Positions 5,047 to 51,941 of a stretch of DNA of 64,000 nucleotides are shown piece after piece. Under the pieces are notes generated by a model. The model was not told the origin of the DNA, made no database searches, and saw nothing but the letters and a program-made list of their open reading frames with translations. The DNA is taken from assembly GCA_025054935.1 (NCBI GenBank), contig JANWZD010000006.1, forward strand, positions 24,228 through 88,227, written 5' to 3'. A program made the translations under genes and the position numbers. This DNA comes from Dehalococcoidia bacterium. Its GTDB lineage: Bacteria > Chloroflexota > Dehalococcoidia > SpSt-223. Each line of letters starts with the position of its first letter. Positions within the stretch are counted from its first letter, which is position 1.

Positions 5047-5120
5047 TGTTCCCTCTCCCCTCTTTGCGAACGCCAGGCTCTGCTGCGCGATCGCGTGACG
5101 CCAGTCTACACTGTCCCCTG

Positions 5121-6143: not shown

Positions 6144-6200
6144 AATAGAGCTCATCGTGCGTTCGGCCTGCGATCAATCGAAACCGCCCGGGAGAGTGCA

Positions 6201-7862
6201 ATGGCAGTGCGGCGGCTAGCAGAGATCACCGATCTACCGGCAATCGAGACACGGATGTTCATTGGGCACGGACCGGCTGATTCGGCGTCGGGGCGGCGCT
6301 TCGAGACCATCTACCCGGCGACCAATGAGGTGATCGCCCGATTACCCGACGCGAGCCCCGAAGATGTCGACCGCGCGGTCACGGCGGCGCGGCAGGCCTT
6401 CGACCGCGGGCCGTGGCGCCAGATGCCCGTTGAAGCGCGGGTCGGGATCCTCAACCGGTTTGCCGGGATGCTGATGGCGGCCGCCGACGAAATCGGGCGC
6501 ATCCATTGTCTCGACACCGGCAAGACCCTGCGCGAAGCGACGAGCGAAGTGCGGGCCGCCGCTTTCCGTCTGCTCGATTTCGCCAGCCTCGCCAACATGC
6601 TTCGCGGCGAGACAATGCCTGACCACCCCGATCTCGAGCGATCGAGCCGGCGCGAGCCGATCGGCGTGGTTGCCGGTCTGCTGCCCTTCAATGTGCCGAT
6701 GATCTTTGCCGGCGGCAAGGCCGGCGCGGCGCTCGCTGCTGGCAACTGCATCATCCTCAAGCCCTCCCCCCTCGCCTCCCTCGCTGCCATCAAGTTTGTC
6801 GAGATCGGCAATCGGGCAGGGCTGCCGCCCGGCGTCCTCCAAGTGGTGACGGGAGGAAACGAGACCGCCGCCGCGCTTGCTCGCCACCCCGGCGTCGACC
6901 TGATCTCGCTCACCGGTTCCGTGGCCGCCGGGACAGCGATGATGCAGTACGCGGCGCCGACGATCAAAAAAGTGATCCTCGAACTCGGAGGAAAAGGGGC
7001 GAATATTGTCTTCGCCGACGCCGACCTCGACCTCGCTGTCCGAGGCGCCCTCGCGGCCATCTTCCCCGACGCCGGCCAGCGCTGCTTCGCCGGCTCCCGG
7101 CTGCTGATTGAGCGCTCCATCTTCGACCAGTTTCTCGAGAAGATGAGCGTGCGCGCCAAGCGGATCCGTCTCGGCGATCCTTTCGCGCCGGAAACGCAGA
7201 TGGGCCCCCTGATCACCGAGGCAGCGTTCCAGCGGGTGGCGCGGCGGGTAGAAGACGCCTGCAGCGCCGGCGGGCACGTCGTGATCGGCGGCCGCCGCCC
7301 AGCGCATCTCGAGATCGGCAACTATTACGAGCCCACCATCCTTATCAATGTCCCGACCACCCACGAGGTGATGCGCGAGGAGATCTTCGGGCCGGTCGTC
7401 TGCGCTCTTCCCTTCGACAGCGAAGAGGAAGCGATCGCCATCGCCAACGACACCCCGTACGGATTAGCGAGTGGTGTCTGGACGACGAATGTCAACCGCG
7501 CCGCGCGCGTTGTCCGCGGCCTCCGCACGGGCTGGGTGTGGGTCAATACGTGGGCAGTTCAGCAGACAGGCACACCACTTGGAGGCTGGAAGCAGAGCGG
7601 GCTGCTCCAGGAGAATGGGCTCCGGGGGCTCGAAGAGTATACCGAGGTCAAGAGCGTCATCATGGATATCACCGGCAAGACAGTGCCGTGGCCGGAGTCA
7701 GACGACGAGCCGGCCGCTCCTGCCGGCCCGCCGCCGGGGGTGATGGGGGCGGGCGGTCCGCCGCCCGGCGTGATGGGCGCGGGCGGTCCGCCGCCCGGGG
7801 TGACAGGCGCAGGCGGTCCGCCTCCGTGGGTGACGGGGGGCGGAGCGCCGCGCGGCGGCTAG
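6201..7862 (+). CDS. NAD(P)-dependent aldehyde dehydrogenase family protein with an unusual C-terminal Pro/Gly-rich repeat tail
   Basis: ALDH catalytic region: ELGGKGANIVFADADLD (Glu active-site motif) and GQRCFAGSRLLIE (catalytic Cys). The last ~45 aa are GPPPGVMGAG repeats encoded by a 30-bp tandem repeat. Confidence 0.8.
   Translation: MAVRRLAEITDLPAIETRMFIGHGPADSASGRRFETIYPATNEVIARLPDASPEDVDRAVTAARQAFDRGPWRQMPVEARVGILNRFAGMLMAAADEIGRIHCLDTGKTLREATSEVRAAAFRLLDFASLANMLRGETMPDHPDLERSSRREPIGVVAGLLPFNVPMIFAGGKAGAALAAGNCIILKPSPLASLAAIKFVEIGNRAGLPPGVLQVVTGGNETAAALARHPGVDLISLTGSVAAGTAMMQYAAPTIKKVILELGGKGANIVFADADLDLAVRGALAAIFPDAGQRCFAGSRLLIERSIFDQFLEKMSVRAKRIRLGDPFAPETQMGPLITEAAFQRVARRVEDACSAGGHVVIGGRRPAHLEIGNYYEPTILINVPTTHEVMREEIFGPVVCALPFDSEEEAIAIANDTPYGLASGVWTTNVNRAARVVRGLRTGWVWVNTWAVQQTGTPLGGWKQSGLLQENGLRGLEEYTEVKSVIMDITGKTVPWPESDDEPAAPAGPPPGVMGAGGPPPGVMGAGGPPPGVTGAGGPPPWVTGGGAPRGG
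7725..7840 (+). repeat. 30-bp in-frame tandem repeat (~3.9 units; unit ggtccgccgcccggcgtgatgggcgcgggc) encoding GGPPPGVMGA repeats at the C-terminus of the aldehyde dehydrogenase
   Basis: Directly visible as adjacent 30-nt units at 7725-7754, 7755-7784, 7785-7814 and a partial unit 7815-7840, with a few substitutions. Confidence 0.8.
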
Positions 7863-7896
7863 GCGGCCGCTCTGCTTTGCCGAGCCGTGGCTTTTC

Positions 7897-9237
7897 CTAC
7901 TGCCCGCGCTGAATGAGGGTCAGGTCAACAAGCGAGTCGACCGAGGGCAGAACATCCAGGTCGGCAACTGCCGCGATCAGCGCCTCCACGCCGTCGGGAG
8001 AGAGCGGGAGTGCCCCTTCGAGAGCGCGAAGCCGCTCTCGCTCGGTCGCGAAATCCCACTTGAACTCCTCTCCGGTCATCTCATGCGTCAACGAGCGTCC
8101 ATCGACCGTGCGAATAGTGATGCGGGGAGCATACTGGCGGCGGGCGGCAGCGATGACGCGGGTGCGCCGAGCGAGCTCGGCGACGAGCGCAGGCATATCG
8201 AGCGGAGGGTCGGCGCCGCCGTAGGAGAGCCGGCGTCCCGTGGCGGGATAGCCTTTGGCGGCTAGAGCGGCGGCAGCAAAGTAGGGCGTGCTTCCGAAAT
8301 CCGCCGCAGCCGGCGGCAGGCGCGGAAAGCGGGGGCTCGGATAGACCGTCTCCCACGGGTTCATCTCGATTTCGATCGCCTCAACACGCTCGGGGACAAG
8401 CTCGTACTGCCGAGCGAGCCGCGCGACCGCTTCGATCACCGGCTGGTTGAAGCCTGCCGCCGAATAGATCTTCATCGTGACATCGAGGATCTCCCAGCGG
8501 CGGCCGAGATCGGCCGCAACGCTTGCCGGATCCCAGCGGGTCGCGCCCTCGAAACTGCCGCTCAACTCGCCGGCGGCGCTCCCCGTAAACGCGAAGAAGA
8601 ACCCGGCCGGTCCCTCGAGGCAGGTGGGAGCGCCCGTCGCCCCCGCACGGGCGAGCCGAGCAGCAAGCAGGCCGCTCAGGCAGAAAAGCGGCTCTTGATA
8701 CGTCATCTCGCGGCTGCCAGCACGGCTCGGCTCGAGAGGACCGCCGGCGTTCGCAACCGCAAGGGCGATCGCATGGGCCATCTCCTCGGGGCCAAGCTCA
8801 AGCATTCGCCCTGCCGCAACTGCCGCGCCGACGGCGCTGAAGACGGCGCTGGCGCGAAAGCCATGGTTTTGCACCGCCGGAACGATCTCGCGCGCGAGCC
8901 GGCATTGGACCTCGTATCCGGCGATGATGGCGGCGAGCAAGGCGCTGCCATCGCGCGGGCGGCGCTGCCCCTCGGCCAGAGCAGCCGGAAGGACAGCGGC
9001 ACCCGGATGGGTCAGCATGCGATAGGAGTCATCCTGCCCGCGGGCATGAAAGAGGAGGCTGGCGTGAAAGGCTGCCATCATCCGGCTCGCCGGCCGCCCC
9101 AGCCCGAGGAGACGTGCTGGGCCACCGGTCTCCTCGTCTGCGATCACCGCCAGCGCACGGGCAACGTCGGTGTCGCGGAGGCTGGCTAAGCCGACAAAAA
9201 GGGCGTGAAGCAGGACCGCCTTAGCCTTATCGACCAC
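7897..9237 (-). CDS. MmgE/PrpD family protein (2-methylcitrate dehydratase / cis-aconitate decarboxylase superfamily)
   Basis: 446 aa from GTG 9237. PrpD-like N-terminus (VVDKAKAVLLHALFVGLAS) and overall family pattern. Family-like sequence continues in frame upstream of 9237 with no canonical start (see findings). Confidence 0.75.
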   Translation of the reverse strand: MVDKAKAVLLHALFVGLASLRDTDVARALAVIADEETGGPARLLGLGRPASRMMAAFHASLLFHARGQDDSYRMLTHPGAAVLPAALAEGQRRPRDGSALLAAIIAGYEVQCRLAREIVPAVQNHGFRASAVFSAVGAAVAAGRMLELGPEEMAHAIALAVANAGGPLEPSRAGSREMTYQEPLFCLSGLLAARLARAGATGAPTCLEGPAGFFFAFTGSAAGELSGSFEGATRWDPASVAADLGRRWEILDVTMKIYSAAGFNQPVIEAVARLARQYELVPERVEAIEIEMNPWETVYPSPRFPRLPPAAADFGSTPYFAAAALAAKGYPATGRRLSYGGADPPLDMPALVAELARRTRVIAAARRQYAPRITIRTVDGRSLTHEMTGEEFKWDFATERERLRALEGALPLSPDGVEALIAAVADLDVLPSVDSLVDLTLIQRGQ

Positions 9238-9900: not shown

Positions 9901-10413
9901 ATGACCGTCAAGCCCGGATGGCAGGGCCGCTTCTTCGAGGATTTCCAAGTCGGCGATGTCTACCGCCACAACCTTGGGCGTACCATCACCGAGGCCGACA
10001 ACATCTGGTTTACCTTACTGACAATGAACACGAATCCATCACATTTCGACGCTGAATACGCAAAGGGCACCCCCTTCGGCAAGATGTTGGTCAATTCCTG
10101 TCTCACCTTGGCGATTGTCACTGGGCAGAGCGTCTCCGATGTCAGCGAAAACGCGCTCGCCAACCTCGGCTGGGATGAAGTCCGGCTTCCCAATCCGCTC
10201 TTCGTGGGAGATACGCTCTATGCCGAGAGCGAGGTGCTCGAAGTCCGCGAGTCGAAGTCGCGGCCGAATGCCGGGATCGTGACAATCCGAACCCGAGGCA
10301 TGAAGCAGGATGGCACCGTGGTGATCGAGTTCAAGCGGACGATGATGATCTATAAGCGAGGGCACTCGCCGAAGCAGGCGCTTCACCCCGCCGAGCGGAC
10401 CGTGACCTCGTGA
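9901..10413 (+). CDS. MaoC-like (R)-specific enoyl-CoA hydratase / dehydratase (hotdog fold)
   Basis: Start at ATG 9901 with SD GAGGAGGAG 5 nt upstream. The track's longer ORF from 9760 is an extension. MaoC motifs present (GRTITEADNIWFTLLTMNTNPSHFD...LGWDEVRLPNPLFVGDTLY). Confidence 0.75.
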   Translation: MTVKPGWQGRFFEDFQVGDVYRHNLGRTITEADNIWFTLLTMNTNPSHFDAEYAKGTPFGKMLVNSCLTLAIVTGQSVSDVSENALANLGWDEVRLPNPLFVGDTLYAESEVLEVRESKSRPNAGIVTIRTRGMKQDGTVVIEFKRTMMIYKRGHSPKQALHPAERTVTS

Positions 10414-11450
10414 CCGCGGTCGATTTCGAGATCGATGCGGCTGGCACCCTGCCCGTCGAGGCGATCCCGCGATTGGCGCGTCGTGCCGAGGAGGCAGGGT
10501 TTGCAGGGATCTGGAAGGGGGAAACCAACAACCGCGACCCAGTCGCGCTGCTCGCGGCCTGCGCTACTGCCACCTCCTCTCCCCTGCTGGGAAGCGCCAT
10601 CCTGCACCTGCTCGCCCGCTCCCCAGTCGCTGCCGGCATGGCCGCAGCAACGCTCAACGAACTGTCGGGCGGTCGGTTTGTCCTCGGGCTGGGGGTCGCC
10701 AACCCAACGCTCGCGCGGTGGCACGGTGTCCGCTTCCAGCGTCCCCTTGCCATGGCGCGCGATTATGTTGCGATCGTGCGCCAGGTGTATGCCGGCGAGC
10801 GCGTTACGTGGGCGGGTGAGGCGTTCTCAGCACACGACTTTCGTTTGGCGGGCGCGCGGCCTCGCTTTCCGCTGCGGATTGTGCTGGCAGCGCTCGGCCC
10901 CCGGATGAGCCGCCTGGCCGGCGAGATTGCCGACGGGGTTCTGATCAATATGGGAGTACCGTCAGCCGTCCGCGAGATCGCCGGCTGGGCGCGGGAGGGC
11001 GCGCTTGCCGCCGGAAAAGACCCCGCCACGCTCGACATCGTGGTCAAATTCCGGGTCGTGCTGACCGACAACCAAGCGGCTGGACGAGATGCCCTCCGCC
11101 CGACCGTCGCCGCCTACTGCCGCGCTCCCGGCTATCGCGAACTGCTTGCCCGGTCGGGGTTCGCCGCCGACCTGGAACGGATCGAAGCGGCGTGGCGCAG
11201 CGGCGGCTTCAGCGCCGCCATTCGCGCTGTCGATGATGCCATGCTCGAGCGCGTGCCCGCTGCTGTTGTCGCTGACCCGGCAGCCGTCCGTCCCCTGCTC
11301 GATGACTACCTTGACGCCGGAGCGACGCGCCTCCTCCTCCCCCTGATCCCCGTCAGCGACGATCCTGCTGCAGAGACCGAGCGCTTTCTCGCTGGCTGGC
11401 AGCGAGGAGAAGCGCAGGGCGATCAGCGAGAGACAACGCCCCCAGCATGA
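10410..11450 (+). CDS. LLM-class flavin/F420-dependent oxidoreductase
   Basis: GTG start overlapping the MaoC stop (GTGA). Luciferase-like monooxygenase family signatures (EAGFAGIWKGE, FVLGLGVANP). Confidence 0.7.
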   Translation: MTAVDFEIDAAGTLPVEAIPRLARRAEEAGFAGIWKGETNNRDPVALLAACATATSSPLLGSAILHLLARSPVAAGMAAATLNELSGGRFVLGLGVANPTLARWHGVRFQRPLAMARDYVAIVRQVYAGERVTWAGEAFSAHDFRLAGARPRFPLRIVLAALGPRMSRLAGEIADGVLINMGVPSAVREIAGWAREGALAAGKDPATLDIVVKFRVVLTDNQAAGRDALRPTVAAYCRAPGYRELLARSGFAADLERIEAAWRSGGFSAAIRAVDDAMLERVPAAVVADPAAVRPLLDDYLDAGATRLLLPLIPVSDDPAAETERFLAGWQRGEAQGDQRETTPPA

Positions 11451-13439: not shown

Positions 13440-14381
13440 CTACCGCCGAACTAACAGGGGCTCGATATCGCGCCACGAGAGGATCGCGCGCCGCTGAATT
13501 CGCTGCCGCTGCTGAAGCACCACCGCCACTTCCCGGAGCACCGCCAGCCGGCCTCGAAGCGGGGCGGTCTCCCCCCGAAGCAGCCCCCGCGCCACCGCCG
13601 CCCCATCGAGCAGCGGCGCGGCGAGCAGCGCGAACGTCAGGCCGGGCTGGGGCATATTTTTCAGCACGCTCAGCAGCCGGTTGCGCCCGAGGAGAAATTG
13701 CTTCGTCGCGGGAAAGCGCCCGCCGGTTCCCGAATGGGCATGACGCACCACAGCGTTCGGAATGTAGCGCCCCGGCCAGCCGCGCAACTGCGCCCGCCAC
13801 GCTAGGTCGACATCTTCGTAGTAGCTTCCGAAGCGCTCGTCGAACAGCCCCACGTCTTCGAGCATGCTGCGGCGATAGAGCGCCGCGCCGGCGCAGGCGC
13901 CGAACACCGGGCAGGGCGCCTCTCGCTCCGGCACCCGCTCACCGGCACGCAGGTTCCACGCAAAGCCGAAGCGGTCGGGCGCGATCCCCGCCGAGTCAAA
14001 GACCGTCGGGTCATCCAGCCGGACCATCCGTGAGGCCGCCATCGCGAGGTTGTTATCTGCCTCGCAGGCATCAACCAACGCGGCAAGCCAATCCGGCTCG
14101 GCGATCGCGTCGTTGTTGAGCGTGGCAAGATAGTGACCGCGCGCCGCGGCCATTCCTTGGTTTGTCGCCGCCGCAAAGCCGCGGTTGCGCCGGTTGCGAA
14201 TCAGACGGACGCGCGGAAAGGCGCGCTCGATGAACTCGACGGTGCTGTCGGTGGAGCCGTTATCGACAACGATCGTCTCGAACCGGACACCGCGCTGCGC
14301 TTCTACCGCCGGCAGGCAGCGTTCGAGCCACTGCCGGCCGTTCCATGTCACGATGATCACCGAGGCAAGCGGTTCTGTCAC
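13440..14381 (-). CDS. glycosyltransferase family 2 protein
   Basis: Real gene is the C-terminal 313 aa of the track's 840 aa ORF. GTG start at 14381 overlaps the upstream gene's TGA (GTGA coupling). GT2 signatures: SVIIVTWNGRQWLERCL, TIVVDNGSTDST, LNNDAI. Confidence 0.75.
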   Translation of the reverse strand: MTEPLASVIIVTWNGRQWLERCLPAVEAQRGVRFETIVVDNGSTDSTVEFIERAFPRVRLIRNRRNRGFAAATNQGMAAARGHYLATLNNDAIAEPDWLAALVDACEADNNLAMAASRMVRLDDPTVFDSAGIAPDRFGFAWNLRAGERVPEREAPCPVFGACAGAALYRRSMLEDVGLFDERFGSYYEDVDLAWRAQLRGWPGRYIPNAVVRHAHSGTGGRFPATKQFLLGRNRLLSVLKNMPQPGLTFALLAAPLLDGAAVARGLLRGETAPLRGRLAVLREVAVVLQQRQRIQRRAILSWRDIEPLLVRR

Positions 14382-16540
14382 GGAGCATCCAGCCGATAGA
14401 GGTCGACTGTAAACCGAAGCCGCTCCCACTGGCGCGGCAGCCGGTCGAGAGGACGTTCGAGCGCCGGGACATCGAACGCCACAGTGGCGATCGGCTCGCG
14501 GACCGTCGGAGCCGGCGGAAGGCTCCGCTCGCGCAAATACAGCACCGGCCGTCCCTCGGCGTGCCAGCGACGGACCGCCGCGGTAAGGCCAGGGTCGTGA
14601 AATGCCTTCTCTTCGATGGCGAAGACTGTCCGCCCGTAGGCGAAGTGGAGCGGCATCGCCAGCCGTTCGGCAGCAGGGCTCCAGGCGAGCAGCACCACGG
14701 CGTCCGCCGGGATCGCCTCGGCGAGCGCGTCGAGCTGACGGCGCGCGCCCCCATACTCTGTCTCGCCTAGGATCGGACGCGCCTGCCAGAGCAGCATCAG
14801 GGCGAGCACGCCGCCAAGCGCAATGCTGAGCAGGCGATCCCGCCGCGACCGAGCAGAGTGCGCAAGGGCAAACAGCAAATAGGCGATGCCGAGCGAGAAG
14901 ACCGGCACCACGAGCGGAAGATAGCGACGAAACGCCCAGAAATGGGTGGGAGTGACAAGCGACTGCGTGAGCAAGATCAGCGCGGAGATCGCGCCTGCTC
15001 CCGCAAAGAGGAGCAGCACCGGATGCGGCCGCGCGATACCGATCGCGGTCACCCCCGCAACTGCGGCGGCAAGCCCGAGCGGGGTGAAGTACCAGCCAAG
15101 CTGGACAAAGCTCTCTCGGTTTGCGAGCACTACTGCGCGCACGGCAGGGTCGGCTGGGAGGTCGGTGTCTACCACGATCGGGCGGATGAAGAATGCCCAA
15201 AAGCTGAGCGCCGCGACACTCCCTGCAAGCGCGAGATTGAGCCGCGGCGATTCTGGGAGCCGCAGCCAAGGCGCTCGGCCGCGCAGCAGCAGCATAAGCG
15301 CAAGAACGAGGAGGAGGACGCCGGCAGGCCCGACAAAGACCCACCAGTTTGCGGCCGCCAGCCGTCCCAGCTGCTCGAGCGCGAACGGACGGTCGAGGTT
15401 CGCCGTGTCGAGCGCCCGCAGGTCGAGCGCGGAGCGCACGCCCGCAACCGCCGCGAGGTCGAGAGCAATGCGGAGGAGATAGAAGCGCGCAAAGAGTAGC
15501 GCGTGAGCAGCGGCCTGCGCCACAACCAGCAGATAGGCGACCAGCAGCGCGGTCTCGCACCGAGACCAGCGGCCGCGGACCCACTGCCATCCCAGCGCGG
15601 CCGCAAGCGCAGCCGGAAGCACGACGAGATCGATCTTGGCAAGATGGACCAGCCCGAAGCTCGCGCCCGCAAGCGCCGCGAACAGGGGCGAATGGCGGGT
15701 TGCGGCGAAGGCGAGCAGCGCGAAGCCGGTCAGCGCCATCGTCTGCGCCATCAGGTCTGCCATCGGGTAGCGTCCGAACCAGATCTCGCCCACATTGAGC
15801 CCGAGAAAGAGCGCGCCGCCAACCCCCACCGCCGGGTGAACGAGTAGCCGACCGATGAGATAGAGGGCGCCCAGCGCTCCAAGGTAGAGGGTTGGCGCGC
15901 CCCACAGCGGATTCCCGCCCAGCGCCCAGATCGCCATCCAAGCGGGAAAGAGGTGAAACCATTCCGGTTCGAGCAGCCCGCGCTCGGCATCATGCACCGT
16001 CACAAACGGCATGCCAGAGCGATGCCACGGCGCCGGGACGTTGCCGAACAGAGCGCGCCGCTCTTCGGCGGTCAGCCGCGGGAGCTCCGGGTCAGGCACG
16101 AGCAGCGCGCCCGTCCGCGCCATGGCAAGCGCCGTGTTGACATAGACGCCCGGGTCGTAGATGCCGAAGACATATTCCGCCGGGCGGTGCGCCAGCGCCG
16201 CCCCAAGCAGCAGCACGAGGCCCATCATCGCGCTCCACCGCCCGACCACGACGGTGCCGAACGGCAGCGCGCGCCCGCGTGCCGCGGCAATGCCGCCTGC
16301 GGCGCCGAGCGCCGCCCAGACGGCCACGAAGATGGGGAGACGCAACAGTCCCAGTTCGGCGAGCGTGAGCGCAAGCCACGAGTTGAATGCGATCGACAGG
16401 ATCAGCGCAGTGAGAGCGACGTCGACAAGCTCAGTGCGGCAGCCTGCGCGCGCTAGAGGAAGACGGCAGAGGAGGAGCAGAGCAAAGCCCGGCAGCAGCA
16501 GCGCACAGGGTGAGAGGAGGAGAAGCGAGAGCAGGTTCAC
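14378..16540 (-). CDS. large polytopic membrane protein, putative GT-C-type (lipid-linked sugar dependent) glycosyltransferase
   Basis: 720 aa, >12 predicted hydrophobic segments by eye. ATGA start/stop overlap with the upstream paralog; TGA overlaps the GT2 start. Family assignment is inference from architecture and context. Confidence 0.55.
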   Translation of the reverse strand: MNLLSLLLLSPCALLLPGFALLLLCRLPLARAGCRTELVDVALTALILSIAFNSWLALTLAELGLLRLPIFVAVWAALGAAGGIAAARGRALPFGTVVVGRWSAMMGLVLLLGAALAHRPAEYVFGIYDPGVYVNTALAMARTGALLVPDPELPRLTAEERRALFGNVPAPWHRSGMPFVTVHDAERGLLEPEWFHLFPAWMAIWALGGNPLWGAPTLYLGALGALYLIGRLLVHPAVGVGGALFLGLNVGEIWFGRYPMADLMAQTMALTGFALLAFAATRHSPLFAALAGASFGLVHLAKIDLVVLPAALAAALGWQWVRGRWSRCETALLVAYLLVVAQAAAHALLFARFYLLRIALDLAAVAGVRSALDLRALDTANLDRPFALEQLGRLAAANWWVFVGPAGVLLLVLALMLLLRGRAPWLRLPESPRLNLALAGSVAALSFWAFFIRPIVVDTDLPADPAVRAVVLANRESFVQLGWYFTPLGLAAAVAGVTAIGIARPHPVLLLFAGAGAISALILLTQSLVTPTHFWAFRRYLPLVVPVFSLGIAYLLFALAHSARSRRDRLLSIALGGVLALMLLWQARPILGETEYGGARRQLDALAEAIPADAVVLLAWSPAAERLAMPLHFAYGRTVFAIEEKAFHDPGLTAAVRRWHAEGRPVLYLRERSLPPAPTVREPIATVAFDVPALERPLDRLPRQWERLRFTVDLYRLDAP

Positions 16541-18360
16541 GGCGCCCGGTCAAGCAGCTGATAGACCACATCGTCGCCGAACCGCGCCACCTCGGCGAGC
16601 GGCAACGACGGCGCCGTCATGTCGAAACGTGCCCGCGCTTGCTCATCGAGCGACGCCCGATGGACCACGAGGTAGCGCACCCCGCGCTCGCGCAGCAGTG
16701 CGAGGGCAGCCGGGGTTGGTCCCTCCGCCAGTTCGCGAGAGAGCGCCACAAGATCCGCAGGCCGGTAGGCGCTCGTCCCATTGACAATCGGCCGGCCATG
16801 GCGAAGCGCCGCCAGCATCCGAACGCTCTCCAGCCATGCCCGCTCGGTGTGGAGCAGCATCGGCAGCACCGCCACCGCCCCGGGTTCCGGCGCCGTCGCC
16901 AGCCACTCCTCGGCCGCTGTCGAGGCAGGAGCGAGCGCGCGCGGATTGCGTCCGAGCGCGGGGTAGTCATCGGTGGAATGCGCGACGGCGCCTTCCCCAA
17001 GCCAGACCGGCACGGCATAGCTCGCTGGATAGGAAGCGCTTTCCGCGACAATCAGCAGGCCGAGTGCGGCAGCAAGCGCAGGGGGCAGCCAGCGATGCGG
17101 GAGCGAGCGCACTGCCGAGAACAGCGCCGCCAGCCCGAACCCCGCGGTCAGCGCCAGCGCTATCTGCACAATGCCGCCGGCGCGCGCCGGGACGCGCAGG
17201 CCCGCGAAACCAGGAACATGCTCATACAGCCAGCCATACCACTGCAACCCGAGCGGGAGGCTGGGATTGAGCCCGAACGAGAGGCCGAGATTAACCGCCG
17301 CAACAGCGAGCAGCGCAAGCGCAATGCTGCGCGACGGTCCTCGCCGCGCGAGCGCCGTGCCCGCTCCTGCCGCTGCGAATATGAGCACGACGAGGCCGGG
17401 GAACAACGACCGCTCCGACCACTGGTCCGGCCGCAGCGGCGCCACGAGCCGACCCAAGAGGAGATTGCTCGGCGGAACAACGAGGTAGTCAGTCAGCGAG
17501 GCACTGTAGGTGCGCACCTCGTCGGGAGCGCGCGTAAAGGCCATCCGCTCGCTCACAGCGAGATAGCGGAGCGCAAGCGGGAGATTGAGCGCGAGCGAGA
17601 GCGCGGCCACCGCCCCCAGCAGCAGCAAGCGCCTCGGCCACAGGGCCGACCGCACCATCTGGTCCGTCGCCGCCCGGACAAGGACCCACACCCCCAGCGT
17701 CACTGCAACGAGCGGCGCAAGGTTGTATGAGGAGAACAGCAGCACATTCACTCCGCCGGCGAGCAGGAGCGCGTCCCGCCCGCGGCTGCTGACCAAGAGC
17801 CGGTCGAGAAACAGCAGAACAAAGGGGAGCCAGTGCAGCCAGAGCAGGTTGAGATGGCTGACATGGGCGATGCGAAAGGGGCTGAAGGCGACCGCGAGCC
17901 CGACGAGGAAGGCAGCAAGAGGTGAGCCGGTGAATTGCCGCGTCAGCAGATAGCCGCCGAGCGCAGCGAGGGTGAAGGAGAGCAGTGTGAGCAGATTAGC
18001 GGCAAGAACAGGGTTGCCGGTGAGCTGGATAATGGGCCACGCAGCGAGCCCCTGCGCGAGCAGATGGTCGTGAAAAAGAAGAACGTCTCGGTGCGGGAAG
18101 AAGAACGGCGCATCCAGCACGCCGCCGAGGTTGCGCGGGATCGTCCGCGCATACCAGGCGAGGTACCAGACCATAACGAGCGGGTCGCCGAAGTCGGGCA
18201 CCCCCTGCGTCAGATCGAGAGCGACGGGATAGGTGAGGATAAGCGTCCCAAGAGCGTAGGCGGCTGCCACGCCGAGGATGCCGGCATAGCGGCGAACAGA
18301 CAGGCGGATGGAGGCGACCGCCAAAGACGCCCGCTTGTCACCCGCCAGCGTCACGCTCAA
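16537..18360 (-). CDS. large polytopic membrane protein, putative GT-C-type glycosyltransferase (paralog of 19403-21535)
   Basis: 607 aa. Its N-terminal ~150 aa align motif-for-motif with the 710 aa protein upstream (TYP..L...VP..GD...W.LAWYA...P..L...P.F.P.......D.H..AQ...AWPII.LTG.PVLA.NLL). ATGA coupling at both ends. Confidence 0.55.
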   Translation of the reverse strand: MSVTLAGDKRASLAVASIRLSVRRYAGILGVAAAYALGTLILTYPVALDLTQGVPDFGDPLVMVWYLAWYARTIPRNLGGVLDAPFFFPHRDVLLFHDHLLAQGLAAWPIIQLTGNPVLAANLLTLLSFTLAALGGYLLTRQFTGSPLAAFLVGLAVAFSPFRIAHVSHLNLLWLHWLPFVLLFLDRLLVSSRGRDALLLAGGVNVLLFSSYNLAPLVAVTLGVWVLVRAATDQMVRSALWPRRLLLLGAVAALSLALNLPLALRYLAVSERMAFTRAPDEVRTYSASLTDYLVVPPSNLLLGRLVAPLRPDQWSERSLFPGLVVLIFAAAGAGTALARRGPSRSIALALLAVAAVNLGLSFGLNPSLPLGLQWYGWLYEHVPGFAGLRVPARAGGIVQIALALTAGFGLAALFSAVRSLPHRWLPPALAAALGLLIVAESASYPASYAVPVWLGEGAVAHSTDDYPALGRNPRALAPASTAAEEWLATAPEPGAVAVLPMLLHTERAWLESVRMLAALRHGRPIVNGTSAYRPADLVALSRELAEGPTPAALALLRERGVRYLVVHRASLDEQARARFDMTAPSLPLAEVARFGDDVVYQLLDRAP

Positions 18361-19373
18361 TGTTTCCCGAACACCTCGAACATCAGCCGCTGTGCTTCTT
18401 CGCGGCGCGATTGATCCATCAAAATGCCGGGGACCTGAAAGGTCGGCAGATCGACAACATCTTTGTACGCCTCGAACTTTTTCCGGACTTCGTCGGGCGT
18501 GCCGGCGATGCTCATTGCGTCGATCATGTCGTCCGTCACGGCGTCGATCATCGCCGTCATATCATGCTTGACATGGAATGCCTCTTGGATCGCCATCCGC
18601 TGCTTGGTCCATCCTTGCGAATCGGGGATGTGGCTGTAACTGCGGGTGGTGAGATAGAAGGCGATCTGGGCAGCCGCTTCGCGCCGCGCTTGGGCGCGGT
18701 CATTCGAGATCGCCGTCAAGATCCAGGTCGAAAGGGTGAAGTCCTCCCGCTTTCGGCCAGCCCGGCGGAGCCCGATGGCGAGGTTCGGCTCGATGAACTC
18801 CTTGATAAACCGGATCGAGTTGACCGGGTGTCCCGCTAATCCTTCACACAGTTCACCCGTCAGCTGAAGCATCTTCTCGCGGACCGCTGCCATGTAGATC
18901 GGAATTGTCGGCTGGTAGACCTTTGCGCGCCGGAACTGCCGGAGATCGATCTGGTAAAACCGCCCCTCATACTTGATCCGCTGCGGCTCGTGCGCCGCCC
19001 AGCAGCGGCGCAGGATCTCAATCAGTTCGCGCATCTGCGGGACCGGATGCTCAACAGTCACCGAACTTTCGACTTGGTTTTGGCGCGGCGTCCCCCCGGC
19101 AAGGCCGAGGACAAACCGCCCCTCGGAGATTTCGTCAAGGTCGGCAGCGGCAACTGCAGTGACAGTACAGGCACGCACAAAGGCGCGCGCGATTCCGGAG
19201 CCGAGACCGATCTTCTTGGTGTTGAGCGCCATTGCGGTGAGGCCGATGAAGCCGTCGACCCCGGTATTGTCATTGAACCAGACGAGGTCAAAGCCGGCGT
19301 CTTCTGCCTGCTGCGCTGCTTTGACAGCGTCTGCGATCGTCCGTCCGCCGACGGACACCGCTCGTTTCTGCAT
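18357..19373 (-). CDS. LLM-class flavin/F420-dependent oxidoreductase embedded in the glycosyltransferase operon
   Basis: 338 aa. Luciferase-like family signatures (AEDAGFDLVWFNDN, FVLGLAGG). Its stop overlaps the downstream GT-C start (ATGA). Confidence 0.75.
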   Translation of the reverse strand: MQKRAVSVGGRTIADAVKAAQQAEDAGFDLVWFNDNTGVDGFIGLTAMALNTKKIGLGSGIARAFVRACTVTAVAAADLDEISEGRFVLGLAGGTPRQNQVESSVTVEHPVPQMRELIEILRRCWAAHEPQRIKYEGRFYQIDLRQFRRAKVYQPTIPIYMAAVREKMLQLTGELCEGLAGHPVNSIRFIKEFIEPNLAIGLRRAGRKREDFTLSTWILTAISNDRAQARREAAAQIAFYLTTRSYSHIPDSQGWTKQRMAIQEAFHVKHDMTAMIDAVTDDMIDAMSIAGTPDEVRKKFEAYKDVVDLPTFQVPGILMDQSRREEAQRLMFEVFGKH

Positions 19374-19402
19374 GGACCCTCCTGCTGATTGCCGGAAGCA
19401 TT

Positions 19403-21535
19403 CTACCGGAGCGAGAGTAGGTAATCCTGCTCAAGGCGCAGCCCGCTCCCCGCAAGCTCGCCCTGCGCCTCCAGCAGCAGCCGAACCGGCCCGGTCCAGC
19501 GGGGAACGTCGATCAGGATGGGAAGTTCGACGGCGTCGCCCGCAGGAACAAGAAGCGGTTGGTGCACGGCGACCGTCTGCTCGGCAATGCGGCGTCCTTC
19601 GGCGAGCCAGCGCACGGAAAGACGATACGGCTCCGCGATGCGCGGCACAAACGGCGCGTGGTCGGCGTTGGCGAGGATAAGCCACGCTTCGGCGCGCTCC
19701 CCAGCGCGCGCGTGCTGAGGCGCCTCAAGGGCGAGGGTTACCTTATCCCGCGCCGCCAGCGGCGCCTCCGGCACTCGGTAGACGAGGGCTGTGTCGAAGG
19801 TCGCCGCCGGCGCCATGCCGCGCGCCTCCGCCCGGCGGAGAAGCGCTTCAAACGACGTCGGCGGCATCTCGCCGCGATGAACGACGACAAATTCGACCCC
19901 AAGGCCATACAGGACTGCCAGCGTGTCATCATCGGGGAAGCCCGCCATTCGCCGCGAGAGGTCTTTTAGGGTCGGGGGAATGAACCCTCGGTAGCCGTTG
20001 AGCAGCGGCCGCCAGTGGAGCGTTCCCCGCAGCATCCGGGAGGTCTCGTACCATTGCTCCCTTGTGTGAAGCAGCATCGGCAACTCAACGATCGGCGCGC
20101 GGCCCGGCTGCTCGGCCAGCCATCGCGAGACGGCGGGAGGGTGGTCGTCGATCCGCTCCTCAGGGCGGAGAAACGGCAGCGAGAGCGACTCGGTGACCGC
20201 AAACCCCGTGATCAGCAGCGCGGCAACCGCAGCCCCTCCTATGCCGAGGGAATGGCCGGCCCGCTGCAGCGGCGGCCAAGCGGCGAGGCGGGGCAGCAGC
20301 CATGCGAGCGCGAACCCCGCAAGGAGAGCGAGCGCGAGCGTGACGAAGACTGCTGCTCGTGCCGGAACGCGGACGCCGCGGGTGACCGGCAGGAGATCGT
20401 AAAGAAGACCATAGACCCGAACATCGGGCAAGGGCGGGGGGAGCGGCGCAAGCCCCAGCGAGAAATTCCCCGTCACTCCCGCGACCGCCACAGCAGCGAG
20501 GAGAAGCCCCCGGCGGCCGCGGCTGACTGGCAGCGCGAGCGAGAGCGCGCCGATGGCGCCGAGCGTGAGCAGCGTGATCCCCGGGAAGAGCGAGTGCTCG
20601 GTCCATGCCGGATGACGCCACGGCGCCGTGAGCGATCCGTACAGCCAGCTGAACGGTGAGGCGACGAGATAGTCGAGCGGCGAGGCGCTGTACAGCGCAG
20701 TCTCAGCAGCATCGCGGGTGAAGCCGAGCTGCTCGCTCAGCCGAAGATAGAGGAGGCCGAGCGGCGCGTTGACGAGCGCAATCACGCCCGCCGCCGCGGC
20801 CAGCCCTCCAAGCGTCCGGCGGGTGATCAGGCGCGGAGCCGAGAGCAGGCGGACGAGGCACCACACGCCCACCGTGAGCGGGTAGACCAGAACGAAGTTG
20901 TAGGCGGAAAGCAGCTGCGCCGTTGCGGCGAGCGTGAACCCCGCAAGGTCGCGGAGGCGACCGACGGCGATCCAGCGGTCGAGCAGCCAGAGCGAGAACG
21001 GCACCCACTGCACCGACAAGATATGGAGATGGCCGGCATGCACAAGGCGGACGCCGCTGAACGAAAAGAGCGCGCCGGCCGCAAAGGCCGCCCAGCGGTT
21101 TCCTGTCCAGCGGCGGACGAGCAGATAGACCCCAACGGCGCTGAGCAAGAAGGTGGAGAGCAGCAGAAGGTTGTACGCGAGGACGGGGCTGCCTGTCAGC
21201 TTGATGATCGGCCACGCCTGAACCGCCTGCGCAAAGAAATGCTCGTCGTACAGCATCGTGAGCTGGTAGGGGTAAAAAATCGGACCCGTCAAGATCGTCT
21301 CAAGCCGGCTGGGAAAGGCCGCGGCGTACCACGCGAGCGCCCAAGCGGTCAACATCCCGTCGCCGGAGGGCACAAGCGTGGTCGGAAAGCGCAGCAGCGG
21401 ATAGGTCACGACGAGAGTGAGGAGGAGGTAGCCGGCAGCGACAAGGCCCCACTCGCGGAGCGCCCAGCTCGATCGCACGCCCGAGGCAGACTGGGCTCCT
21501 GCCGCCTTCTCTGCCGCTGTCAGAACGCCGCTCAT
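19403..21535 (-). CDS. large polytopic membrane protein, putative GT-C-type glycosyltransferase (paralog of 16537-18360)
   Basis: 710 aa. Same conserved N-terminal membrane-domain motifs as the 607 aa paralog, plus a long C-terminal (likely extracytoplasmic) domain. First gene of the minus-strand operon. Confidence 0.55.
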   Translation of the reverse strand: MSGVLTAAEKAAGAQSASGVRSSWALREWGLVAAGYLLLTLVVTYPLLRFPTTLVPSGDGMLTAWALAWYAAAFPSRLETILTGPIFYPYQLTMLYDEHFFAQAVQAWPIIKLTGSPVLAYNLLLLSTFLLSAVGVYLLVRRWTGNRWAAFAAGALFSFSGVRLVHAGHLHILSVQWVPFSLWLLDRWIAVGRLRDLAGFTLAATAQLLSAYNFVLVYPLTVGVWCLVRLLSAPRLITRRTLGGLAAAAGVIALVNAPLGLLYLRLSEQLGFTRDAAETALYSASPLDYLVASPFSWLYGSLTAPWRHPAWTEHSLFPGITLLTLGAIGALSLALPVSRGRRGLLLAAVAVAGVTGNFSLGLAPLPPPLPDVRVYGLLYDLLPVTRGVRVPARAAVFVTLALALLAGFALAWLLPRLAAWPPLQRAGHSLGIGGAAVAALLITGFAVTESLSLPFLRPEERIDDHPPAVSRWLAEQPGRAPIVELPMLLHTREQWYETSRMLRGTLHWRPLLNGYRGFIPPTLKDLSRRMAGFPDDDTLAVLYGLGVEFVVVHRGEMPPTSFEALLRRAEARGMAPAATFDTALVYRVPEAPLAARDKVTLALEAPQHARAGERAEAWLILANADHAPFVPRIAEPYRLSVRWLAEGRRIAEQTVAVHQPLLVPAGDAVELPILIDVPRWTGPVRLLLEAQGELAGSGLRLEQDYLLSLR

Positions 21536-22370
21536 GACGCGCCGAGCATTCTAGCAACCGGAGCCGACAGTAGCTGGCTGTGCATGGACCTGCTTCCGCT
21601 AGGCCGCCGGCAAAGAGCAGCACAATGTCGGCGGCAGGACTGACCACTGTCTCTCCTCGTCAGCGTCCCCCAACTCGGAGTTCTCGCGGCAGGGAGCGTC
21701 CACGACATGCAGCCCATGAGCGCGCTCGATGCTGGACGAGGCGCGTGTCCGCCTCGATGAGTGCGATACGACCTCGGCGTGGGCAGGCAACGGCTGCCGC
21801 TCCAGTTCGGTGCGCAGCCAGCGCTTCGCGGCAGTCCGGCGCCTGCCCGCAAGGGAGCGCGGCGCAGTTCCGCGCCCCTGCAGACGGAACGCGGCTGGAG
21901 CGCCGGGCATCCGACAGCCTAGCAGGGGTCCGCGCTAGGGGAGGAGCATGCCGCGCGGAGGACATCTTGGCCGTTCGTCCGGCGGACCGACAATCGTCAG
22001 GGATCGAGATGCGGCGCCGCCCTGCAAGCCGTCGCGTGCGGCACTGCCCGAGGCCGAGAGCGCGCTTCGCCCGCAGCAGCGCCGCGACAGGCGGCTGCGC
22101 TGCCGCAACGCGCCGAGATGACGGGGAGGAAGTAGCGTCGCCGTCCTGCAGAGCCGAGGAGGAGGGCAAGCGCCAAGCGCGCTCGTTCGGACTGCTGCCG
22201 CTGAGAGCCGGTCCGCCTTTCGGCGCACGATGCGCGAGGAAGCAGGACGCAGCCCGCAATCGCGCGGGCCGCAGGGAGGCAGGGGAGCGTCAGCCGACGA
22301 GGCGCCGCGCTGCGCAGCAACGCGATCGCCTCACGCCGCTGCGAGGGAGACGCAGCCGCAAGGCGCTCGA

Positions 22371-24383
22371 TCACCCTCGACTGCGCAGCAGCGCCGCCGG
22401 CACGAAGGAATGATGCATCGGACCAGGAGTGGGGAGATCGACCGAGTTCGGGATGATACGCGGCGGGGACACGCTCGCTGCGAGGGCGTCTGCCGGCTCG
22501 AAGATGATCGTGACCGGCGTCCCTGGCGGCACCGACGACGGAATGGCGCTCAAGTCGACCTCGATCTTCGCAATCGGCTGCATCGACGATGTGACGAACT
22601 CAACCAGCGGGGTCACGGTCACCCAGCGCCTGGGGTCGACATCCGGAATGCCGGGCGGCAAGACGAACCGGAACCGGAACCGGATCGGGCGCGGGGCGGT
22701 CGTTCGCGCGGAGAAGAAATACGGCGCGCCCAAGGCGATCGGAGGCACCCGCAGCGAGGTCGGCGGCAGATAGCCTGTTCGGCCGGCGTCGAGGTGGAAC
22801 ATCGGCCATTCGGTTGTCGGCGGCAGATGACGCAGGATCCACTTATATACCCAGCCATTGGTCGCGTCGGTCCCAGGGGTCTCGAAGAGGTTGCCCCCGA
22901 CGACATACAGCTCCAATTGCCCATCGCCGTCGAGGTCGCCGATCGCCGGGCTCGCCTGAACGATAAAGTTCGTGTGATAGCTCGCGATCTGGTTGCCCGC
23001 TGCGTCGAACTCGGCAACACCCCAGTCGACAGCCTGAAAGATGTGCCCCCCTGCGATCACCGGCGAGGTGCGCAGCCCGTCGGTCTTGTTATCGCGGTCA
23101 ACCGGCCGGCGCGACCAGAGCTCTCGCCCGTCCGAATCTACGAGCAGCAGCCGGCTGTTTTCGAACTGGGTGTGGCCAGTCCCATACGCAACCGCAATCT
23201 GGTAGGTCGGCAAGCCAAGGGCAGAGGTCCGGCCACGCAGGTTGGCAAGCGCCGGCGAGCTGTATCCTCCAAACCCCTCAAAGCGGACCCGCCACTTCTC
23301 GGCGCCGGTCGCTGCGCTGACGCAGATAAGATGATTGTCCGGCCGCGGGGTCTGCTGGCCGACGCGACGCGAGGCTCCCGTTTCGCGGTAGAACGGCCCG
23401 GTCGCGAAGACTACTTCAAGGTCCCCGTCGCCGTCAATGTCCGCAACGGCCGGCGCGGCGAAGATCGTATCTTCATAGAAGTTGCGCCAGAGCAGTGTTC
23501 CGTCCGGCCGAAAGGCGTTAAGAAAGCCGCCGCCAAGCTGCTCGACGCCCCCCGCTACCGAGGGGCCGATATCTTGGCCGATGAAGAAGTGATAGCGCCC
23601 CGGCACCGATGCGGCGCTCCACGTGCGATTGACGCTCAGGTCGCCGATGGCGGGCGTCGACCAGACGGAGTCGGCGGCGTGGAACTCCCACAGTTTCCGG
23701 CCGGCGGCGTCAACGAGGTAAATCCAGCGGTCCCACCCGCCGTACATGATATCGAGGGTCGGGCCTTGATAGCGGGATGCAAGCACCGCCGAGCCATAGA
23801 CGGGGTCACGGATGCCGTCTCCTCGCCCTGCCGGCCAGTCATCATGACCGGTGTCGAAATTCCACAGCAGTTCGAAGCGGCGCGTCTGCCGGTTGAAGCG
23901 GTAGCAGTGCATGCCGTTGTCGGGAGCAATGTTATCGTCCACATCACCGCCGACCGGCACGAGCACGCACGGGTCGGCGCCCGGCTGGAGCGCTCCTACC
24001 GAGACAGCCCCGTTGATCGGCCCGATCGTCGGCTGCTCGGCGACAATCTCGAGGGTGTTCGCGCCGCTGCTTCGGACGACAAACACCTTCGCTTCGCCGC
24101 GCCGGTCGTAGGCGCCGCTGACCAAGCGAGCGCGCGTCGTCCCGAAGATCAACTCGGGGCGACCGTCGCCGTCGATGTCATACACCGCAGGAGAACTGCG
24201 GCCGACAAGACCGGCAGGAAGCCGCAGCGTTGCGTCCGGGCGGCTGTTGGAGACGGGCGCCGCCTCTGCCCGGCCTGCGCCTCGCAGCGCAGCCGCGCCT
24301 ATGCCCGCTGCCGCTGCGGTCAATACCGTTCGCCGTGGAATCTGCTGGCGCCGGAAGGATGGTCCGTCGGTTCGTCGCGCCAT
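22371..24383 (-). CDS. Tat-secreted FG-GAP / VCBS repeat beta-propeller protein
   Basis: 670 aa. Twin-arginine signal (RRQQIPRRTVLTAAAAGIGAAAL). Multiple FG-GAP-like Ca-binding loops (DIDGDGRPELIFG, DIDGDGDLEVVFATG, DLDGDGQLELYVVGGN). Confidence 0.7.
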   Translation of the reverse strand: MARRTDGPSFRRQQIPRRTVLTAAAAGIGAAALRGAGRAEAAPVSNSRPDATLRLPAGLVGRSSPAVYDIDGDGRPELIFGTTRARLVSGAYDRRGEAKVFVVRSSGANTLEIVAEQPTIGPINGAVSVGALQPGADPCVLVPVGGDVDDNIAPDNGMHCYRFNRQTRRFELLWNFDTGHDDWPAGRGDGIRDPVYGSAVLASRYQGPTLDIMYGGWDRWIYLVDAAGRKLWEFHAADSVWSTPAIGDLSVNRTWSAASVPGRYHFFIGQDIGPSVAGGVEQLGGGFLNAFRPDGTLLWRNFYEDTIFAAPAVADIDGDGDLEVVFATGPFYRETGASRRVGQQTPRPDNHLICVSAATGAEKWRVRFEGFGGYSSPALANLRGRTSALGLPTYQIAVAYGTGHTQFENSRLLLVDSDGRELWSRRPVDRDNKTDGLRTSPVIAGGHIFQAVDWGVAEFDAAGNQIASYHTNFIVQASPAIGDLDGDGQLELYVVGGNLFETPGTDATNGWVYKWILRHLPPTTEWPMFHLDAGRTGYLPPTSLRVPPIALGAPYFFSARTTAPRPIRFRFRFVLPPGIPDVDPRRWVTVTPLVEFVTSSMQPIAKIEVDLSAIPSSVPPGTPVTIIFEPADALAASVSPPRIIPNSVDLPTPGPMHHSFVPAALLRSRG

Positions 24384-35268: not shown

Positions 35269-35352
35269 TGGCGGGATTATGCCGTTCCCCGCTCCCGCTC
35301 GTCGCCTGTTGACAGCGCGTGCCGCCGTCGGTAGCCTCCTCTCGGAGGCACG

Positions 35353-51470: not shown

Positions 51471-51941
51471 TCACGTTGGCCGCTTCCTGACCAGCAGCGT
51501 ATGCTGAAACGTAAGCACAGTCTCGCCACGTTGGTTAACAATGCGGTTGTCAAGCCGGATCACCCCCCGGTCTGCCCGGCTCGTCTCGCGGGTCTCAGTG
51601 ATCGTCACTTCATTGTGAATGGTGTCCCCCGGGCGCACCGGGCCGTGATAGCGCACGCTCTCGACGCCGAGCAAGGCGAGCAAGGTGCCGGTCACCAACG
51701 GCTCTGTCGACGCGAGGCCGATCGAGAGCGCGAGCGGACCAGGCGCGATGCGCCCCCCAAAGGGCGACGCGGCAGCGTATTCCTCATCGAGGAACTGCGG
51801 ATTGTTGGCGCCGATAAGGCCGGCGAAGAGCACGATATCCGCCTCGGTGATGGTGCGGCCGTCGGTTCGAAAGCGCTCGCCGACGGCAAACTGGTCGAAC
51901 CAGCGACCGAAGCGCACTGGCTGTGCAGCCGGATGGTCCAT
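51471..51941 (-). CDS. MaoC-like dehydratase (hotdog fold)
   Basis: 156 aa. GRTITEADIVLFAGLIGANNPQFLDEEYAA matches the MaoC dehydratase N-terminal motif. Confidence 0.75.
   Translation of the reverse strand: MDHPAAQPVRFGRWFDQFAVGERFRTDGRTITEADIVLFAGLIGANNPQFLDEEYAAASPFGGRIAPGPLALSIGLASTEPLVTGTLLALLGVESVRYHGPVRPGDTIHNEVTITETRETSRADRGVIRLDNRIVNQRGETVLTFQHTLLVRKRPT

Follow-up and report, generated by a model that had tools for sequence, protein, structure and literature searches.

GT-C enzymes carry out the final, surface-side step of many envelope glycan pathways, and the envelopes of the Chloroflexota are poorly understood. In the 64,000-nucleotide stretch of DNA analysed here (the window; positions 24,228 to 88,227 of the forward strand of contig JANWZD010000006.1, GenBank assembly GCA_025054935.1, from a Dehalococcoidia bacterium of GTDB lineage SpSt-223), an operon at 13440-21535 brings together a GT2 glycosyltransferase, three very large membrane proteins and a luciferase-like (LLM) oxidoreductase. 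An earlier note on this DNA, made by a model from the sequence, had drawn attention to this combination, and the question raised by the locus is what an oxidoreductase does among glycosyltransferases. Our analysis indicates that the locus is most likely a clade-restricted operon for cell-envelope (extracytoplasmic) glycosylation in a thermophilic, uncultured hot-spring lineage of Dehalococcoidia-class Chloroflexota. Its assignment to extracytoplasmic glycosylation operons of the GT-A plus GT-C kind, with three GT-C enzymes from two uncharacterised families, is well supported, and we give a probability of about 0.5 to the view that the LLM has a functional role in the pathway, tailoring the sugar donor.

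Gene content and packing of the operon

Five open reading frames (ORFs) of 313, 720, 607, 338 and 710 aa lie on the minus strand at 13440-21535; the three membrane proteins are called memA, memB and memC in the text.

13440..14381, minus strand: GT2 glycosyltransferase (PF00535), 313 aa, GTG start, last gene of the operon
14378..16540, minus strand: memC, GT-C-fold membrane glycosyltransferase, by homology probably of the PMT_2/ArnT-like kind, 720 aa
16537..18360, minus strand: memB, GT-C-fold membrane glycosyltransferase, 607 aa from TTG 18360, or 605 aa from GTG 18354
18357..19373, minus strand: LLM oxidoreductase (PF00296), cytoplasmic, 338 aa
19403..21535, minus strand: memA, GT-C-fold paralog of memB, 710 aa

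The GC content at third codon positions of these ORFs is 0.75-0.80 in a window of ~67% GC, so that all five are typical of real genes. Moreover, the same five genes are called in the public annotation of the identical metagenome contig, and the ORFs and this gene call agree with the coordinates and lengths that the earlier note had given. The same note had the five genes chained by start/stop overlaps, a description that holds for the tight packing and for the GTGA at 14381-14378, a 4-nt overlap at the memC/GT2 junction. However, the two sites claimed as ATGA read GTGA (16540-16537, memB/memC) and TTGA (18360-18357, LLM/memB), and memA does not overlap the LLM gene, from which it is separated by a 29-nt spacer with a GGAGGG Shine-Dalgarno sequence ahead of the LLM ATG. 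The public gene call starts memB at GTG 18354, which leaves a 2-nt gap after the LLM gene instead of an overlap. Overlaps chain four genes (LLM, memB, memC and GT2), and the fifth, memA, is closely spaced. Overlaps of 4 nt are common elsewhere in the window too (e.g. 10410-10413 and 57308-57311). Such overlaps or 2-nt gaps are also found in the orthologous loci L002, L003, L004, L017 and L019 (see later in the text), which indicates that the packing is conserved and not accidental. The operon is tightly packed and probably translationally coupled. Rfam and promoter/terminator scans of the region gave nothing useful.

The membrane proteins are GT-C-fold enzymes of two families

memA and memB are 39% identical over 587 aa (BLASTP, E 2e-80) and have in common the N-terminal block TYP..VP.GD..W.LAWYA..AWPII.LTG.PVLA.NLL, which confirms them as paralogs, and memC, for which BLASTP found no similarity to either, is divergent, as had been proposed. 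A weak match between the memC and memB families was obtained with hhalign (71% probability, E 3.6e-5, ~83 columns). The three proteins are GT-C-fold enzymes from two unrelated-looking families with a faint mutual relation.

None of the three reaches a curated Pfam or NCBIfam threshold, and HMM profile searches of the PDB with the membrane proteins retrieved no solved structure by sequence, two results that speak for transporters or other non-glycosyltransferases. We nevertheless regard such an identity as scarcely credible, and as transporters the proteins are rejected by the fold searches. The structure models of memB and memC are confident (pLDDT about 90, pTM 0.92), and the 22 Foldseek matches at E <= 0.001 are GT-C enzymes without exception, whereas transporters of the MFS type fit the models with a TM score of about 0.11 and a probability of at most 0.33. 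The memC model matched STT3B (score 22.6), PglB (22.1), ArnT (21.5) and ALG12 (21.0). The structural neighbours of memB include AftA and AftD; however, the fit of OST, ArnT and PMT enzymes to the models equals or exceeds that of the arabinosyltransferases.

The weak sequence matches of the membrane proteins and their relatives all fall in families of the GT-C clan (YfhO, PTPS_related, PMT_2, DUF6541 and DUF6044, scattered over family members) and, together with the fold searches, bear out the GT-C-like nature suggested in the earlier note. Of the particular families that this note had put forward for comparison, GT87/DUF2029, PMT (PF02366) and Emb-type arabinosyltransferases gave no Pfam match at E <= 1. 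memB reaches 11.8 bits against YfhO (PF09586), below the gathering threshold of 28.5, and its ortholog P0002 (74% identical) stops just short of it at 27.4 bits; weak YfhO matches occur in 6 of 41 memB-family members. memA has a weak PTPS_related match (0.0012). For memC itself there is no match at E <= 1 to PMT_2 (PF13231; gathering threshold 26.1 bits), but its homologs P0083 (31% identical to memC, E 9e-57), P0094 and P0100 pass this threshold with 33.8, 30.9 and 40.1 bits, respectively. It is by transitive homology only that memC would belong to a PMT_2/ArnT-like family.

Conserved residues were also compared. In the memB family alignment, 33 of 38 ungapped sequences have D59, 35 of 41 have an acidic residue (D or E) at position 98, and all have the arginines R389 and R393, which are candidate phosphate ligands by inference only. 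The 35 memC sequences all have D129, and at position 150 there is D in 33 of them and E in the other two. These acidic residues (memB 59/98, memC 129/150) sit in a loop that follows a transmembrane helix, and as an Arg/Lys-rich segment precedes the helix, the positive-inside rule predicts that the loop lies outside the cell. The conserved acidic and basic residues would fit a GT-C active site, with a putative catalytic position.

A profile search with the memA/memB family returned 70,077 cluster representatives at E <= 0.001 and 14,651 at E <= 1e-30 (clusters counted at 50% identity). Nine of the ten top-ranked memB-family members tested were below every Pfam-A gathering score, and the tenth, P0260, just passes DUF6044 (30.0 bits against a cutoff of 27). 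To our knowledge this very large GT-C family has no characterised member, and the conserved operon offers one of few clues to its function. Some memB-family members are fused to carbohydrate-binding domains (F5/8 type C, NedA-like and PA14). memB has a C-terminal alpha/beta domain, and memA carries an extra C-terminal domain of ~110 aa that is homologous to the extension of the single-copy memB orthologs in L004 and L017.

The GT2 enzyme is soluble

The product of the last gene matches PF00535 (E 1.8e-34) and has no hydrophobic segment at Kyte-Doolittle >= 1.6, hence no transmembrane segment. It is a soluble Leloir enzyme of the GT-A type, as the earlier note had recognised. Its best NCBIfam matches are of the MftF, EpsD and PgaC types, and models of the MftF, EpsD, HpsN, GlfT1 and rhamnosyltransferase types span most of its GT-A domain. 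The note had further suggested that the enzyme could make a polyprenyl-phosphate sugar, and this part found no support: ArnC (PRK10714; E 2e-4, residues 8-112) and PgfS (E 7.5e-5) match the N-terminal half only, DPMS in a PDB search (E 6e-8) covers only residues 6-118, and GtrB is not among the PDB matches. The GT2 is thus probably not a polyprenyl-phosphate sugar synthase, as far as such matches can tell. It is 68-83% identical to its orthologs.

Conservation of the operon among relatives

Orthologous loci were found in the following related contigs, given with their identity to the window proteins.

L002 (KatS3mg060): LLM 96%, memB 74%, memC 72%, GT2 82%
L003 (STL-CHL33): LLM 91%, memB 64%, memC 57%, GT2 78%
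L004 / L014 (KatS3mg061 / HOT.Cluster.3): LLM 91%, memB 60%, memC 57%, GT2 83%
L017 (metagenome contig): LLM 84%, memB 55%, memC 47%, GT2 68%
L019 / L020 (metagenome contigs): LLM 78%, memB 59% (L019) and 53-58% (L020); contigs end before memC and GT2

In six of six related contigs memB comes directly after the LLM ortholog, the two genes overlapping by 4 nt or lying 2 nt apart, and the pairing of memC with GT2 is kept in L002, L003, L004 and L017. LLM, memB, memC and GT2 form a conserved core, an ancestral four-gene operon headed by the LLM, which is the promoter-proximal core gene in L004/L014 and L019/L020. memA is present in the window, L002 and L003 and is missing in L004 and L014, where the LLM is the first gene of the operon and memB retains the C-terminal extension seen on memA in the window; memA, together with the gene of an FG-GAP propeller farther upstream, is an addition in one sublineage. 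In L003 the memA ortholog (6824-8957) is broken into two ORFs (535 and 181 aa) with an overlap at 8412-8431, which reflects either a frameshift (and possibly a pseudogene) or an assembly error.

Some 200 nt upstream of the LLM ortholog, L019 (2-772, minus strand) and L020 (2-283, minus strand) carry a divergently transcribed PIG-V/PMT_2-like GT-C gene (45.3 bits against a cutoff of 22.4) that has no counterpart in the window, L002-L004 or L014. As memA is found in the window and a different GT-C in L019/L020, the LLM is flanked by GT-Cs in two arrangements.

A scan of genome contigs for the linkage, anchored on the LLM, detected it in three GTDB species, a narrow Dehalococcoidia-class clade. 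At the edge of this clade LLM identity drops from 71% to 49%, memB identity from 55% to 36% and memC identity from 47% to 31%, and these matching drops indicate that the LLM orthogroup is clade-restricted in the same way as memB and memC. The LLM searches revealed no LLM ortholog outside this operon context; two orthologs, P0134 (77%) and P0135 (71%), are on contigs too short to show their neighbours. The gene linkage that the earlier note had proposed to look for in related genomes is therefore present, in six related contigs and within a close Dehalococcoidia-class clade, whereas distant homologs of memB, memC and the LLM are unlinked. One of these, the distant memC homolog of L005, belongs to a polysaccharide cluster of the classical type, alongside GT4, GT2, Wzx and pyruvyl transferase genes. 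A lasting association of the GT2 with the memC family over long distances was rejected, as the GT2 of L005 shares only the generic N-terminal 110 residues.

The LLM is probably F420-dependent

The LLM matches PF00296 (Bac_luciferase TIM-barrel) over residues 11-305 (E 4.9e-58, 197.4 bits). Its ten best NCBIfam matches are all F420-dependent LLM families, each below its curated cutoff (TIGR03617, the best, gives 195.6 bits against 278.15), FMN-dependent families score far lower (e.g. SsuD, 3.4e-8), and the closest solved relatives are F420-dependent Mer enzymes (E 3e-32). This agrees with the luciferase-like (F420/flavin) oxidoreductase announced in the earlier note, and the matches point to an enzyme that is probably F420-dependent. 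F420 production has been confirmed in Chloroflexi in general (PMC8498797); none of the F420 biosynthesis genes cofC/D/E/G/H and fbiC turned up among the window ORFs scanned.

Full-length LLM orthologs are 78-96% identical to the window protein, the ortholog of L017 is 84% identical over the 190 aa present there, and the next relatives beyond the clade are only 47-49% identical. The window holds four LLM genes among its roughly sixty called genes in 64 kb; besides that of the operon they are:

5046-6143, plus strand: luciferase-like oxidoreductase
10410-11450, plus strand: luciferase-like oxidoreductase
35880-37064, plus strand: luciferase-like oxidoreductase

The four share only 27-34% identity, which excludes the embedded LLM as a recent local duplicate of a neighbouring one. 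The gene at 10410-11450 and a MaoC/mesaconyl-CoA hydratase gene have 4 nt in common.

A proposed pathway and the role of the LLM

We propose that the GT2 would act at the cytoplasmic face, using a nucleotide sugar to make or extend a polyprenyl-(di)phosphate-linked sugar, which a flippase encoded elsewhere would move outward. Drawing on lipid-linked donors, the GT-Cs would then transfer sugars to an acceptor outside the cytoplasm. This acceptor could be a wall glycan or a secreted protein, for example the FG-GAP propeller encoded next door with its predicted Tat (twin-arginine) export signal, and catalysis might involve the conserved Asp of the first outer loop (D59 in memB, D129 or D150 in memC). 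The cytoplasmic LLM would tailor the sugar donor or the lipid carrier by hydride transfer before export, a role that would resemble that of DprE1/DprE2 or of the pentofuranose SDR epimerase with a different fold and cofactor. A narrower version, in which the LLM is an F420-dependent enzyme that oxidises or reduces a polyprenyl-phosphate-linked sugar, its nucleotide sugar or the carrier and so supplies a dedicated donor to the two GT-C families, is tentative and, on balance, doubtful.

Several points favour the LLM as a functional part of the pathway, which we hold to be about as likely as not: its coupling to memB is invariant in the six related contigs, it is promoter-proximal in the core operon, it is flanked by GT-Cs in two arrangements, and its orthogroup is as clade-restricted as the GT-Cs. 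Across relatives it is far more conserved (78-96%, full length) than the GT-Cs (47-74%), and it is the usual pattern in glycan loci that precursor enzymes are more conserved than transferases. The elements of this scheme have precedents: redox epimerases occur inside GT-C donor pathways (PMC11127046), F420-dependent LLM enzymes act on sugar phosphates and envelope lipids (PMC8498797), and GT-A/GT-C pairs are known whose flippase is encoded elsewhere (PMC8035078).

However, a number of observations weigh against donor tailoring, and several of them speak for a bystander LLM, i.e. a constrained metabolic oxidoreductase that is co-transcribed at the head of a GT-C operon and takes no part in glycan synthesis, which we hold to be a serious possibility, if short of probable. 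With four LLM genes in the window, beside paralogs of CoA-transferase III, MmgE/PrpD, MaoC and aldehyde dehydrogenase, chance adjacency is not negligible; the pattern is like that of the related SAR202 Chloroflexota, which are known for large LLM expansions (PMC5395668). This abundance makes an LLM beside the operon less remarkable here than it would be in most genomes, and the earlier note's view that an LLM in a glycosylation operon is unusual is weakened to that extent, although described systems do offer no counterpart. Moreover, the linkage-bearing genomes are all close relatives, most of which share the flanking synteny from hflX to pyrG, so that the contexts are not independent observations and the adjacency may be simply inherited. 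In the three relatives that also carry pyrG the LLM is 91-96% identical (84% in L017 and 78% in L019), as conserved as pyrG itself (90-93%) and more so than hflX (76-84%), a level of conservation that a housekeeping enzyme would show as well. The outgroup LLMs closest to it (47-49% identity) adjoin genes for an AMP-ligase and a MaoC dehydratase, i.e. acyl-CoA-type neighbourhoods, and no LLM at 34-40% identity has a GT-C or GT2 within 10 kb. A metagenome scan with the LLM ortholog alignment recovered mainly 30-40% relatives, again none with a GT-C or GT2 within 10 kb, and a scan with the single LLM sequence gave no matches. Likewise, distant homologs of memB (L006 and L007) and of memC (L005 and L018) have no LLM nearby. 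What the bystander view has against it is that the coupling of LLM to memB is kept in every ortholog context, including L019/L020 with their different upstream GT-C, and that the orthogroup is both confined to the clade and absent from other contexts among the LLM orthologs seen.

Other points of the same unfavourable kind concern the glycosylation part of the proposal. The GT2 is unlike GtrB, ArnC and CsbB, but GT-A enzymes without a membrane anchor that work beside GT-C enzymes have precedents such as GacI (PMC8035078), and the analogy with three-component systems discussed below is thus weakened and survives. No flippase (GtrA, Wzx, MATE or SMR) was found in 13440-24383 or in the other window ORFs scanned. 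The evidence as a whole comes from a handful of closely related metagenome-assembled genomes, and what the LLM may do there is a proposal.

Comparison with known glycosylation systems

The three-component systems CsbB-GtcA-YfhO, GtrA/B/C and GacI/J/K/L (PMC8035078) likewise place a GT-A (GT2) gene beside GT-C genes, and their GT-C enzymes have a conserved Asp in the first outer loop, which is putative in the present proteins. Their flippase is often encoded elsewhere and shared (PMC8035078), and the present locus has none. The best Pfam neighbour of memB is YfhO, below threshold. In contrast, the usual GT-A component of these systems is GtrB/CsbB/ArnC-like and as a rule membrane-anchored, which the GT2 is not; three GT-Cs from two families here correspond to a single GT2; and the coupled LLM at the operon head has no described counterpart. 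The unusual parts of the locus are at most the conserved co-translated LLM, the lack of a GtrB-type synthase and the lack of a flippase in the locus, and it otherwise belongs to a known kind of GT2/GT-C operon.

The earlier note had read the gene set as reminiscent of mycobacterial arabinan/DPA-type logic. Such a pathway would require the GT2 to produce a polyprenyl-phosphate sugar, the LLM to epimerise that sugar by oxidation and reduction, and the three GT-Cs to polymerise it in the manner of Emb/Aft enzymes; we judge this very improbable. The mycobacterial DPA and pentofuranose GT136 systems (PMC11127046) do combine several GT-Cs with a cytoplasmic redox/epimerase step, as would this locus, where the redox step is our own suggestion; redox epimerases in GT-C donor pathways are precedented there, AftA and AftD are structurally near memB, and Emb, AftD and ORF12 carry carbohydrate-binding modules, as do some memB-family members. 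However, a UbiA-type PRPP transferase, a phosphatase, and DprE1 (FAD) and DprE2 (SDR) or an SDR epimerase, all part of those systems, are missing from the operon and from the window ORFs scanned, as is a flippase, so that the arabinan/DPA-type logic is not supported. L004 alone has a UbiA gene, which lies ~9-10 kb upstream of the operon and does not belong to it. The redox enzyme here is a TIM-barrel LLM with a probable dependence on F420, there is no sign of a pentofuranose donor, the GT2 does not look like a polyprenyl-phosphate synthase, and the structure models fit OST, ArnT and PMT enzymes at least equally well. We also know of no single hydride-transfer enzyme that performs the two-step epimerisation.

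As for the LLM, the F420-dependent enzymes Mer, Fgd/Fsd, fHMAD and fPKR (PMC8498797) have the same PF00296 fold, and among them Fgd and Fsd act on sugar phosphates and fHMAD and fPKR on envelope lipids (PMC8498797). The operon LLM differs from them in that it is below all curated subfamily cutoffs and 47-49% identical to its nearest relatives outside the clade. We know of no characterised F420-dependent LLM that is linked to glycosyltransferases.

If the LLM does tailor the donor, F420-dependent (or flavin-dependent) LLM chemistry would be extended from sugar phosphates and mycobacterial lipids to lipid-linked glycan donors, and three-component glycosylation systems would gain a new kind of accessory enzyme. 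If this tailoring depends on F420, it would constitute a redox step new to extracytoplasmic glycosylation, with the role of DprE1/DprE2 but an unrelated fold and cofactor, and the first function assigned in a GT-C family of >14,000 sequence clusters. With a bystander LLM, the locus would simply be another GT2/GT-C glycosylation operon, uncharacterised like others, from an uncultured lineage. No account of this system came up in the literature searched, which covered DUF6311 and connections of GT-Cs or LLMs in Chloroflexi.

The FG-GAP protein and the question of the acceptor

Upstream of memA, two further features bear on the operon.

21536..22370, no strand: intergenic stretch upstream of memA, 836 nt, 71% GC, looks non-coding
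22371..24383, minus strand: FG-GAP beta-propeller protein, 670 aa, with FG-GAP and PQQ_2 matches

The N-terminus of the FG-GAP protein reads as a twin-arginine-like signal, ..IPRRTVLTAAAAGIGAAAL..AEA (IPRRTVL...AEA). The gene tracks memA, both being present in the window, L002 and L003 and neither in L004 and L014; the two may have been gained or lost as a module, and the FG-GAP protein is a possible accessory or acceptor.

This co-occurrence and the export signal speak for a different reading, namely protein O-glycosylation, in which memC, and perhaps memA and memB, would modify secreted proteins such as the FG-GAP propeller. The actinobacterial pair Ppm1 (GT2) and Pmt (GT39) would be the model, with a soluble or peripheral GT2, a PMT-like GT-C and a secreted protein next door, and the relatives of memC that pass the PMT_2 gathering score would fit it. 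PMT_2 covers ArnT-like lipid/glycan transferases as well, however, and memC has neither a PMT (PF02366) match nor MIR domains. In addition, the GT2 is DPM1-like in its N-terminal half only, the locus has two more GT-Cs and an LLM, the core operon does without FG-GAP protein and memA in L004 and L014, and the carbohydrate-binding modules on memB-family members point to glycan acceptors. Protein O-glycosylation is therefore decidedly improbable, and we retain envelope glycosylation by a GT2/GT-C operon.

The intergenic stretch shows no codon-phase GC signal, no Rfam match and no Pfam match for its ORFs, and blastn found nothing similar in relatives or in the rest of the window. In this lineage the promoter presumably lies within it. 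As the orthologous gap in L002 is only 74 nt, the stretch may be a lineage-specific insertion or a degraded gene.

The rest of the window

The operon is flanked by housekeeping genes, with miaA, dapF, an aminotransferase gene and hflX upstream and pyrG downstream. Dense catabolic paralog families occupy 3031-9237, 31090-33477 and 51471-60329. The catabolic genes of the window include two CoA-transferase III genes, two MmgE/PrpD genes, MaoC hydratases and an aldehyde dehydrogenase, and the same stretches also hold an old-yellow-enzyme fusion, an HpcH aldolase and a cyclase; a similar catabolic paralog expansion has been described for SAR202 Chloroflexota (PMC5395668). A very hydrophobic polytopic membrane protein of 647 aa with an Arg-rich N-terminus and no Pfam match is encoded at 33493-35436 (minus strand). 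A PIG-L family gene (GlcNAc-PI de-N-acetylase / MshB-BshB-like) and a DUF3090 gene are found at 50688-51401 and 62133-62720 (both minus strand). Finally, dnaA lies at 54494-55906 (plus strand), and the cumulative GC skew drops steadily across the second half of the window; given the presence of dnaA, the window is probably near the chromosomal replication origin.

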